Below, piece by piece: positions 54,965-56,931 of a stretch of DNA of 64,000 nucleotides. Both the position numbers and the translations under genes were made by a program. Below the pieces are notes generated by a model. The model ran no database searches. It had not been told where the DNA came from and saw nothing but the letters and a program-made list of their open reading frames with translations. The stretch lies in the IMG/VR virus record IMGVR_UViG_3300043399_000700. One strand, 5' to 3'. Positions within the stretch are counted from its first letter, which is position 1. Each line of letters starts with the position of its first letter. The DNA is from a virus (Duplodnaviria > Heunggongvirae > Uroviricota > Caudoviricetes).

Positions 54965-55870
54965 ATGAAAAAGATACACATCCCATCTGTCGAGTTTTAT
55001 ATTACCAACGTGTGCAACCTTACTTGCGAGGGCTGCAATCGTTTTAACAACCTTAAATTTAAAGGTTGGCAAGCCTGGCAGGACTATGCTGACGTTTATG
55101 CCGAATGGGCTAAACATGTTGAACTAGACAAGATTGTTATTCTCGGCGGAGAGCCTTTGTTAAACCCGACATTGCCCGAATGGATACGAGGGTTACATAA
55201 ACTATGGCCTTGCCGTCCAGAGATACGCCAACACACACCAATACAAGTTTTAACCAATGGGACTCGTTTGGGATATTGGCCAGAATTATTTAATACCTTA
55301 ATTGAGTCAAATGCTTGGCTTGGTGTATCGTTACACCACAATGCGTATAAACAAGAATTATTTGAAAATATTCATAAGTTCTTCAAGGGTGCAAAATACA
55401 GAGTTTATGAGGACCCAAATGGCAACGCAGGAACCACAGGCGGCCATTATTCATTTGAAGGCCCAGTAAAAGTAGGCGTTTGGCAGCAAAGTTTGTTTAC
55501 TGAAAACAGTATTAAAATTAATCCAGCGGGCGACATGACTTTGTACAATAGTAATCCAGAACGTGCTCACAGCATTTGTAATTTTGCACAGAACAAAGTC
55601 TACCATTTCATCAAAGGTAAGTTGTACAAATGCGGACCGGTTGCATTATTTCCAGAATTGGATGAACAATTTGGATTGGACATTCCGCCCGAAGACAAAG
55701 AACTAGTACACAGTTATCAACCTTATACCATAGATAATATTGAACAGCTCAAGGATAACTTTTTTGAACATATTGACAGCGTAATTCCACAATGCAAATT
55801 CTGTCCAGAGAGCTTTACCCATCATGAACTCAAATTCATGCCCAAGAAAGCAATAAATATTGACAAATGA
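54965..55870 (+). CDS. Radical SAM enzyme of unknown function
   Basis: CNLTCEGC (Cx3Cx2C) at residues 17-24 and VILGGEPLLNP. C-terminal Cys pair CKFC. Confidence 0.6.
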   Translation: MKKIHIPSVEFYITNVCNLTCEGCNRFNNLKFKGWQAWQDYADVYAEWAKHVELDKIVILGGEPLLNPTLPEWIRGLHKLWPCRPEIRQHTPIQVLTNGTRLGYWPELFNTLIESNAWLGVSLHHNAYKQELFENIHKFFKGAKYRVYEDPNGNAGTTGGHYSFEGPVKVGVWQQSLFTENSIKINPAGDMTLYNSNPERAHSICNFAQNKVYHFIKGKLYKCGPVALFPELDEQFGLDIPPEDKELVHSYQPYTIDNIEQLKDNFFEHIDSVIPQCKFCPESFTHHELKFMPKKAINIDK

Positions 55871-55911
55871 TTTATTGTGTAGTACAGTAATAAGTTACAG
55901 GAGTATTAATC

Positions 55912-56298
55912 ATGGCGTATTCTAATAAGGTAATCGACCATTATGAAAACCCTCGGAATGTTGGCAGTTTTGCTAAGTCCGATACTGATGTCGGCACTGG
56001 TATGGTTGGTGCGCCAGCTTGTGGCGATGTTATGAAATTACAAATAAAGGTGGAAAATGGTACTATCACCGACGCAAAATTTAAAACATACGGCTGTGGC
56101 TCGGCTATTGCATCGTCAAGCCTGGTCACAGAGTGGCTCAAGGGTAAAACTCTGGACGAAGCAACAGAGATTAAGAATACAGCGATTGCAGAAGAGCTTG
56201 CACTCCCGCCAGTTAAAATTCACTGCTCAATACTTGCTGAGGATGCTATCAAAGCAGCAGTAAAAGACTACAAGGATAAGCACAATGGATCCAATTAA
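55912..56298 (+). CDS. iscU: IscU Fe-S cluster scaffold protein
   Basis: 128 aa, nearly colinear with enterobacterial IscU ([19 protein letters not shown]...[15 protein letters not shown]...[20 protein letters not shown]...[19 protein letters not shown]). Confidence 0.9.
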
Positions 56299-56614
56299 TC
56301 TAACTGAGTCTGCAGTGGTTAAACTTGCAGATTTACTAGCCGAAGAAAACAATCCTAATCTTAAATTGCGTGTATTTGTTACTGGCGGCGGCTGTTCGGG
56401 ATTTAATTACGGGTTTACCTTTGACGAAGATCAAAACAACGACGATTTTTTAATCGAAAAAGATACTGTACGAGTTTTAGTCGACGAAATGAGTTACCAA
56501 TATCTTGTTGGTGCTACCATTGATTATGTCGAAACAATTCAAGGTAGTCAGTTTTCTATTAAAAACCCTAACGCAGTAACAACTTGTGGGTGTGGATCGA
56601 GTTTTAGCGTATGA
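56285..56614 (+). CDS. erpA: A-type Fe-S carrier, ErpA-like
   Basis: [26 protein letters not shown]...[16 protein letters not shown] closely matches ErpA (three conserved Cys). Confidence 0.8.
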
Positions 56615-56931
56615 TTACACTAACCGAAAAGGCAGCAATGAAGGTAAAGGTTCAATTAATGAACCGTGATCGAGGATACGGAATCCGTATTGGTGTGCGA
56701 ACAACCGGATGTTCTGGCATGGCCTATTTGCTAGAGTATGTAGATCAAGTTGACCCAAATGACTTGTGTTTCTGGAATCATGGTGTTAACATATACGTTA
56801 ACCCTCAGCACTTGCCATACTTAGATGGGCTAGTAATGGACTGGAAACGCGAAGGATTAAACGAAGGCTTTGCTTTTGAAAATCCCAATGTGCGTGATGA
56901 ATGTGGATGCGGTAGCAGCTTCACCGTTTAA
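56611..56931 (+). CDS. iscA: A-type Fe-S carrier, IscA-like
   Basis: [23 protein letters not shown]...[26 protein letters not shown] closely matches IscA. Confidence 0.8.

Follow-up and report, generated by a model that had tools for sequence, protein, structure and literature searches.

Why a tailed phage should carry genes for the assembly of iron–sulphur (Fe-S) clusters, and whose proteins such clusters would serve, is the question raised by a locus at positions 54965–56931 of a 64,000-nucleotide stretch of viral DNA (Caudoviricetes; IMG/VR record IMGVR_UViG_3300043399_000700), hereafter the window. There, a gene for a radical S-adenosylmethionine (radical-SAM) enzyme is followed by genes for the scaffold IscU and for two A-type carriers (ATCs), ErpA and IscA. 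An original prediction, made without database searches, had read this trio as machinery recently captured from a gammaproteobacterial host, still mobile, and supplying clusters to the phage's own radical-SAM enzymes. The reading we favour, at a probability of roughly 0.55, is that the trio forms a miniature iron–sulphur cluster (ISC) system which would boost Fe-S supply during infection, its clients being the phage's own radical-SAM enzymes of the twitch subclass and, probably, Fe-S proteins of the host.

An intact scaffold and two carriers in a phage genome

All five open reading frames (ORFs) between 54965 and 57607 were confirmed, consecutive and on the plus strand (Table 1), and with them the prediction of three overlapping genes directly after the radical-SAM gene. 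iscU and erpA overlap by 14 nt and erpA and iscA by 4 nt; the trio is translationally coupled.

The IscU product exceeds the cut-off of its equivalog model, TIGR01999, as well as that of PF01592 (177 bits vs 22, E = 2e-52). Aligned to E. coli IscU (PDB 2l4x; 81.6% identity, 1e-63), it departs by one single-residue gap, which bears out the near-colinearity with the enterobacterial protein that had been claimed, and it retains the ligands C37, D39, C62, H104 and C105 together with LPPVK, the HscA-binding motif, at residues 98–102. The ErpA product likewise passes its equivalog model, NF010147, and its ligand triad C37/C101/C103, in a C-x(n)-C-G-C arrangement, aligns to H. influenzae HI1723 (PDB 2apn, 1e-41). 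In IscA, the ligands C34/C98/C100 align to those of E. coli IscA (1r94 and 1s98; E = 1e-37 for 1r94). This protein falls short of the equivalog cut-offs of TIGR02011, its best-scoring family, and of NF007049 (136 vs 181 bits); it passes the general A-type carrier subfamily model TIGR00049 (107.6 vs 58.8 bits) and, from its sequence, is best called an IscA/SufA-type (ATC-II-like) carrier. The classes ATC-I and ATC-II were defined by Vinella et al. (2009, PMC2682760). ErpA and its IscA neighbour share only 31% identity, too little for a recent tandem duplication, and the prediction of two distinct carriers stands; the conserved cysteine ligands, whose absence it had named as its own undoing, are present in all three proteins. 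Relative to a sister phage contig, L163, the ratio of nonsynonymous to synonymous substitution rates (dN/dS) is 0.066 for iscU, 0.023 for erpA and 0.064 for iscA, a range (0.02–0.07) shared with the ribonucleotide reductase (RNR) and structural genes; the trio is intact and, in this phage–phage comparison, under strong purifying selection.

Compared with the bacterial iscRSUA-hscBA-fdx system, the phage proteins are orthologue-grade (IscU 82–90%, IscA 50–63% and ErpA 57–59% identity), every ligand and LPPVK are kept, and iscU again precedes iscA. Unlike the bacterial system, the phage locus is without IscR, IscS, HscB, HscA and Fdx, for which the 64-kb window offers no match better than E = 0.14. 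Its codon usage is phage-like, its neighbours are virion and nuclease genes, and erpA, unlinked in E. coli and Betaproteobacteria, stands between iscU and iscA.

The window also encodes a tail sheath, tail tube, large terminase, gp32-like single-stranded-DNA-binding protein, UvsX, primase and helicase, and its DnaB is 50% identical to those of PA5oct-type and 46% to those of Atu_ph07-type jumbo phages. Judged by these sequences, it comes from a T4-like/jumbo myovirus of a lineage related to PA5oct and Atu_ph07. A similar picture could arise if host DNA had been wrongly assembled into a viral contig or if the contig were chimeric, and bacterial contigs with isc genes do turn up among database records labelled “phage”, such as Acinetobacter phage MD-2021a with its full isc operon. 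Here, however, the gene order repeats in independent assemblies (L163, L165 and L169, plus L055/L186, which are one IMG/VR contig), the base composition of the locus is phage-like and homogeneous with the remainder of the window, and the flanks hold phage structural and replication genes. An artefact is already refuted by the independent contigs, and we accord it practically no weight.

Table 1. Coordinates and principal matches of the isc locus and associated features in the window.
Feature	Coordinates	Strand	Match or remark
Radical-SAM enzyme, 301 aa	54965..55870	+	PF04055 44.1 bits vs cut-off 29.5
iscU, Fe-S scaffold, 128 aa	55912..56298	+	TIGR01999 224.2 bits vs 192.4
erpA-type carrier (ATC-I), 109 aa	56285..56614	+	NF010147 175.3 bits vs 117
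iscA-type carrier (ATC-II), 106 aa	56611..56931	+	best family TIGR02011, 145 bits vs 150.6
HNH homing-endonuclease gene, free-standing	56999..57607	+	HNH_3 PF13392 35.9 bits vs 24.8; phrog_19902 6e-27
Second radical-SAM enzyme, 389 aa	47923..49092	+	NF033640 171 bits vs 170; PF04055 45.8 bits
Promoter-like site, TTGACA-17-TACAGT	55860..55888	+	at shuffle expectation, lead only
Class Ia RNR	60354-63805		3.4 kb downstream of iscA

Age and origin of the isc genes

The high conservation of IscU had been taken to signal recent capture of the block from a gammaproteobacterial, enterobacteria-like host, and the near-colinear alignment to the E. coli protein lends this some appeal. The nearest bacterial IscUs, however, are betaproteobacterial (Zoogloea, Rhodocyclaceae, Polynucleobacter, Thiobacillus and others; 82–89%), identity to Acinetobacter being 78%, and the window IscU is on average as close to bacterial IscUs (84.7% of amino acids) as to viral ones (84.4%). 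At third codon positions, which are saturated, the phage gene shares an identity of 0.34 (maximum 0.48) with its closest bacterial counterparts; where residues are identical, phage and bacteria share 35% of codons; and GC content at third positions is 0.40 in the phage iscU, against 0.36–0.38 for the phage background and 0.72 in the bacterial genes. Because protein identity is similar to viral and bacterial homologues while synonymous sites are saturated, the very high identity of IscU to bacteria reflects constraint, not recency, and a tempting inference is thereby corrected. IscA, for its part, reaches no more than 63% identity to any sampled bacterial IscA, and no recent donor was found among 185,579 sampled species.

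Trees were built by neighbour-joining (NJ) on samples biased towards top matches. For IscU, no group was recovered in 100 NJ bootstraps, and a concatenate of IscU and IscA left the placement of the window ambiguous (30 vs 29). In the IscA bootstraps, viral and bacterial sequences separate in every replicate; 73% of replicates place the window among the viral sequences and 32% exclude it from them (tallies as printed). As only IscA gives usable tree signal, the exact donor lineage cannot be named. These sequence comparisons indicate that the isc genes are long resident in phages; recent capture is already contradicted.

The second part of the same proposal, that the HNH gene after iscA marks the block as still mobile, meets a similar end. 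In a three-way DNA alignment of the window, L163 and L169, the HNH cassette appears as a clean insertion of ~658 bp (about 56928–57586), which comprises the HNH ORF and its ribosome-binding region and sits precisely where the iscA stop would give way to the start of the downstream exonuclease gene. L169 has no HNH gene after iscA; there, iscA overlaps the exonuclease ATG directly. The cassette is common to the window and L163, has been kept since the two split (dS ~0.6) and is under purifying selection (dN/dS 0.059). It bears an HNH motif and shows a clean intergenic presence/absence polymorphism among relatives, as is characteristic of free-standing HNH homing endonucleases. It is thus the cassette alone that behaves as an indel, while the isc module keeps one syntenic position even among divergent phages, in which the proteins on either side share only 30–75% identity with those of the window. 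The window also has further homing-endonuclease genes at scattered positions, which speaks against reading this one as the mark of a mobile block. On this sequence evidence, the HNH gene is a mobile element, an unrelated selfish insertion, and the isc block itself does not move. A block both recently captured and still mobile is, in our estimation, barely credible.

Two further observations concern nucleases and iscU. In L169 (positions 3624–4014), the first ~35 iscU codons are out of frame, giving two tblastn segments, and a 200-aa HNH gene lies directly upstream; the frame break reflects a sequencing error or else a disruption of iscU. The window, whose genes otherwise lie on the plus strand, has further free-standing endonuclease-type genes on the minus strand, namely a gene with a NUMOD3 motif at 536–1216(-), a cysteine-rich ORF of 116 aa with four CxxC motifs at 4530–4880(-) and an HNH gene at 18600–19151(-). 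A CX3CX2C motif in the last of these was considered as a radical-SAM signature and rejected, the ORF being the HNH protein.

Viral isc genes in other collections

A scan of IMG/VR with IscU returned at least 600 viral IscU loci, of which the best 80 (80–89% identity to the window IscU) provided the locus details given here and below. An IscA-type gene adjoins IscU in 72 of them, joined in about 10 by an ErpA-type gene. HscB, HscA, Fdx or IscR were found next to IscU in none of the 80, and an IscS-like match near IscU in only one (L029, 25% identity); among the 80 closest bacterial loci, 79 hold the complete iscRSUA-hscBA-fdx operon. The corresponding ErpA scan yielded 168 viral ErpA-like loci, and the full trio of IscU, ErpA and IscA occurs, in several gene orders, in 24 of the best 80. 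A complete route in one locus is therefore a modest distinction, common to at least 24 viral contigs. Residing on a bona fide viral genome, recurring in independent contigs and evolving under purifying selection, the genes have the hallmarks of viral Fe-S auxiliary genes.

Among 50,697 GenBank phage records, megablast of the locus gave no match. IscU-like genes are present in only about six genuine phages of that collection, the best being Phage C48C1 (75%), and ErpA-like genes in two uncultured huge phages (39–44% identity). Matches to Acinetobacter phage MD-2021a and to Salmonella and E. coli “phages” were rejected as bacterial DNA in a phage collection. Several other records filed as phages (CAKLQH020000011.1, CAKLQF020000009.1, AFYI01000001.1 and several of the OR84xxxx/OR85xxxx series) are actually bacterial chromosome fragments, one misfiled record containing a full iscRSUA-hscBA-fdx operon plus ppiD, hupB and mfd; such records can yield false “phage-encoded” matches.

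Large myoviruses with a NifU/IscU gene include, besides C48C1, Microcystis phage MaAM05 and Nitrosospira jumbo phage roc1, whose NifU-like gene has been described (bioRxiv 10.64898/2026.05.02.722434). None of these three has nucleotide-level similarity to the window. C48C1 (OQ984149, 156 kb) resembles it in that a large myovirus encodes IscU, a short distance after the DnaB helicase, and differs in that no A-type carrier was seen beside its IscU. Our literature search returned nothing relevant on this phage.

IscU and A-type carrier genes were reportedly first noted in viromes by Sharon et al. in 2011. Marine viral genomes were later found to combine them with many radical-SAM genes, a combination read as viral Fe-S supply (Nishimura 2017, PMC5332604), and a glacier-foreland data set holds 322 viral IscA genes which form a lineage of their own (PMC13469137). 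The marine viruses of Nishimura and the window are alike in several respects: tailed phages, of which several are T4-like, encode IscU and/or an ATC but none of the other ISC operon genes, radical-SAM genes and glutaredoxin co-occur, and the same functional reading has been proposed. They differ in that one locus here unites IscU, ATC-I and ATC-II, a complete aerobic delivery route; in that the lineage here is of the jumbo type related to PA5oct and Atu_ph07; and in that the closest bacterial relatives belong to the Betaproteobacteria, not to SAR86 or another marine gammaproteobacterial group. Auxiliary gene sets of this kind are long established in viruses and have been described before, and the functional idea is already published.

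Radical-SAM enzymes as candidate clients

The 54965 product carries CNLTCEGC (CX3CX2C) at residues 17–24, and seven of its cysteines are invariant across 28 homologues: 17, 21 and 24, assigned to the SAM cluster, and 205, 223, 277 and 280. The best fold match of its AlphaFold2 (AF2) model (pLDDT 88.8) is the twitch dehydrogenase SpeY (7wzx; full-length, E = 2e-12, TM 0.63), with MoaA and EpeE ranking after it and viperins far lower. The motif, the PF04055 match, the C-terminal cysteine set and the modelled fold all agree with the twitch subclass, and the product is probably a twitch-type enzyme with two [4Fe-4S] clusters. It is like SpeY and BtrN in its CX3CX2C near the N-terminus, its length of about 300 residues and its C-terminal cysteine set for an auxiliary cluster, and unlike SpeY in sequence, the two sharing only 17% identity. 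No NCBIfam equivalog was reached for it; a viperin assignment (NF038283) was rejected on score (29 vs 180 bits) and on the low fold rank. Its family counts 1791 unnamed metagenomic members, and every context inspected was a phage contig; in another phage, a homologue of the gene adjoins a GDSL-like gene. The second radical-SAM enzyme that had been claimed, at 47923, is confirmed by its score against NF033640, a twitch-domain family (Table 1). Its gene stands directly after DnaB and is conserved in L163 (88% amino-acid identity; dN/dS 0.078).

Other radical-SAM genes accompany isc genes in related viruses. Three radical-SAM families occur next to isc genes there. Besides that of the 54965 enzyme, one of 333–339 aa sits between iscU and iscA (L074 has one radical-SAM gene at this position), and distant relatives of the 389-aa enzyme stand after iscA. 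Of the 155 ORFs no more than two genes away from an isc gene, 8 have a radical-SAM motif, against 5 of the 300 at greater distance (odds ratio 3.2, P = 0.04), a statistic to be read with the non-independence of the loci in mind. A link between the isc trio and the adjacent radical-SAM gene is, on these sequence data, weakly supported.

Gene neighbourhoods of viral isc genes

The backbone of the window recurs in about 37 of the best 80 viral IscU loci, with flanking proteins only 30–75% identical to those of the window. The shared order is virion protein p334, p111, cargo, IscU, cargo, IscA, a PD-(D/E)XK exonuclease and a tail fibre. L163 reproduces the gene order of the window identically, both radical-SAM genes and the HNH gene included. 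L165 has the radical-SAM gene, IscU, three inserted genes and IscA, without ErpA or HNH. L169, a very close relative, has IscU, ErpA, IscA and the exonuclease, without the radical-SAM gene and with a different HNH gene there. With only two cysteines, the exonuclease was dismissed as a candidate Cas4-like client for Fe-S clusters.

Other viral backbones hold different company. In one, an Fe/Mn superoxide dismutase (SOD) gene (18 loci) and a UvdE UV-endonuclease gene precede the IscU–IscA pair, SOD standing directly upstream of IscU in loci that include L020, L037–L040, L052, L062, L064, L071, L077 and L079. In another, AhpC and an AhpD-like (CMD) gene follow the pair (4 loci). Together, these neighbours point to a theme of oxidative stress around viral isc genes, as far as gene content can tell. 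Elsewhere (L026, L027, L033, L014), IscU lies between or beside RNR subunit genes, in the order RNR-alpha, IscU, RNR-beta.

Such company suits an alternative in which the isc genes are a general auxiliary module, keeping the host Fe-S proteome running (respiration, IspG/H, aconitase) or repairing it under oxidative stress or iron scarcity, with the radical-SAM adjacency incidental. Conservation of the isc module far exceeds that of any radical-SAM gene beside it, SOD, AhpC with AhpD-like, UvdE and RNR genes flank it on the other backbones, and ErpA is known to act in the aerobic maturation of essential host enzymes (PMC2682760). In the window, too, the class Ia RNR lies close downstream (Table 1), and in L163 a glutaredoxin gene follows RNR-beta. 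On the other side of the balance are the presence, within 64 kb of phage DNA, of at least two radical-SAM enzymes of the twitch type, the roughly 3-fold, if weak, enrichment of radical-SAM ORFs within two genes of isc, and the 2–16 Fe-S-related genes carried by published marine viral genomes with IscU/ATC (PMC5332604). We consider this alternative possible, though on balance unlikely. A combined supply to phage and host enzymes and a purely host-directed one are compatible with each other and not mutually exclusive.

A functional proposal and its confidence

On the reading we favour, that of a mini-ISC serving phage and host enzymes alike, the phage encodes the scaffold and two carriers and leaves the catalytic parts of the pathway (IscS, HscBA and Fdx) to be provided by the host. 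Phage IscU would dock on the host cysteine desulphurase IscS and build clusters during infection, and host HscA/HscB would unload it, as the retention of LPPVK leads us to expect. Clusters would then pass from IscU to phage IscA (ATC-II), on to phage ErpA (ATC-I) and finally to the apo-protein, the aerobic delivery route from ATC-II through ErpA to the target being that described by Vinella et al. (2009, PMC2682760). Scaffold and carriers act stoichiometrically and, in model bacteria, answer to IscR/RyhB, as erpA does in E. coli (Mandin 2016, PMC5040110); phage copies may therefore raise Fe-S throughput independently of this host control. As clients we envisage both twitch enzymes (54965 and 47923), for each of which two [4Fe-4S] clusters are probable, together, in all probability, with host Fe-S proteins needed for phage production.

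The same retained motifs for host partners, and the lack of encoded catalytic partners in the window, would also fit a decoy, in which phage IscU or the carriers sequester host IscS or alter the cluster status of IscR, and so reprogram sulphur flux or transcription. A decoy would need neither the full set of cluster ligands nor a full delivery route, both of which have been kept, and purifying selection extends across the whole proteins. We therefore regard hijacking of this kind as very unlikely.

Several observations weigh against the favoured reading, and limit the confidence we place in it. Firstly, a gene of the 54965 family neighbours IscU in only 4 of the best 80 viral loci and is absent from L169; with the neighbour, an accessory gene, missing from most relatives, the isc module cannot be dedicated to the 54965 enzyme. 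Of the original claim that the phage supplies Fe-S to its own radical-SAM enzymes, what stands is the presence of intact, selected genes beside a [4Fe-4S] enzyme, and what this rarity takes away is a fixed partnership between them. Secondly, the interval between IscU and IscA is a general cargo hotspot, which also receives genes for an epimerase and a methyltransferase and, going by sequence motifs only, dCMP-deaminase-like and GNAT-like genes, and radical-SAM adjacency consequently carries little weight. Thirdly, the window covers 64 kb of a probably much larger genome, elsewhere in which IscS or more clients could lie. Lastly, scanning the region for promoters and terminators gave results no better than shuffled sequence. 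The promoter-like site of Table 1, downstream of which AGGAG lies 8 nt before the iscU ATG, is a possible promoter of the trio's own.

A more ambitious extension would treat the IscU–IscA(–ErpA) module as a single, ancient, phage-specific lineage that has spread among several unrelated phage backbones and which, in this jumbo-phage lineage, anchors a cargo hotspot repeatedly receiving twitch radical-SAM and sugar-modifying genes. The module might then be a dedicated maturation platform for phage-specific radical-SAM chemistry, for example in the modification of DNA or virion glycans. We put this forward as speculation, and think it rather doubtful.

Further features of the window

Several features of the window lie outside the isc locus. 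An ORF at 27457–28221 fuses a cytidylyltransferase-like domain to a mannose-6-phosphate isomerase/cupin domain, its neighbours spanning 26413–32213; this fusion and the epimerase and methyltransferase genes inserted by iscU in relatives give a hint, from domain content, of a phage sugar-modification pathway. Three paralogous ORFs (40175–40948, 44087–44845 and 45821–46534) share an N-terminal GCS.T.G motif typical of SGNH/GDSL hydrolases, and the one checked had no Pfam match. Tandem small paralogues occur at 35828–36545 and 15089–15846: three ORFs of 70–88 aa begin MNERI.E and end (E)(H)FGV, and two, of 124 and 128 aa, begin MRA.EFI.E and end SPVKPFKGY. A 981-aa ORF at 12141–15086 has the internal repeat KPDFLDVDKDGNKKEPFKKA(V/I)KDK and a C-terminal cysteine cluster, CCEACGTNPCEC, with only weak PHROG matches of unknown function. 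No tRNA genes were found in the 64-kb window.

Implications

The locus opens no new category of system. Phage Fe-S assembly genes are abundant in environmental viromes, and in the literature we searched their function has been inferred from sequence alone. Against this background, the locus is a compact test case, packing a scaffold, both classes of carrier and a predicted two-cluster radical-SAM client into 2 kb. From it one could learn whether viruses ease a bottleneck in cofactor supply by means of only the stoichiometric parts of a host pathway.

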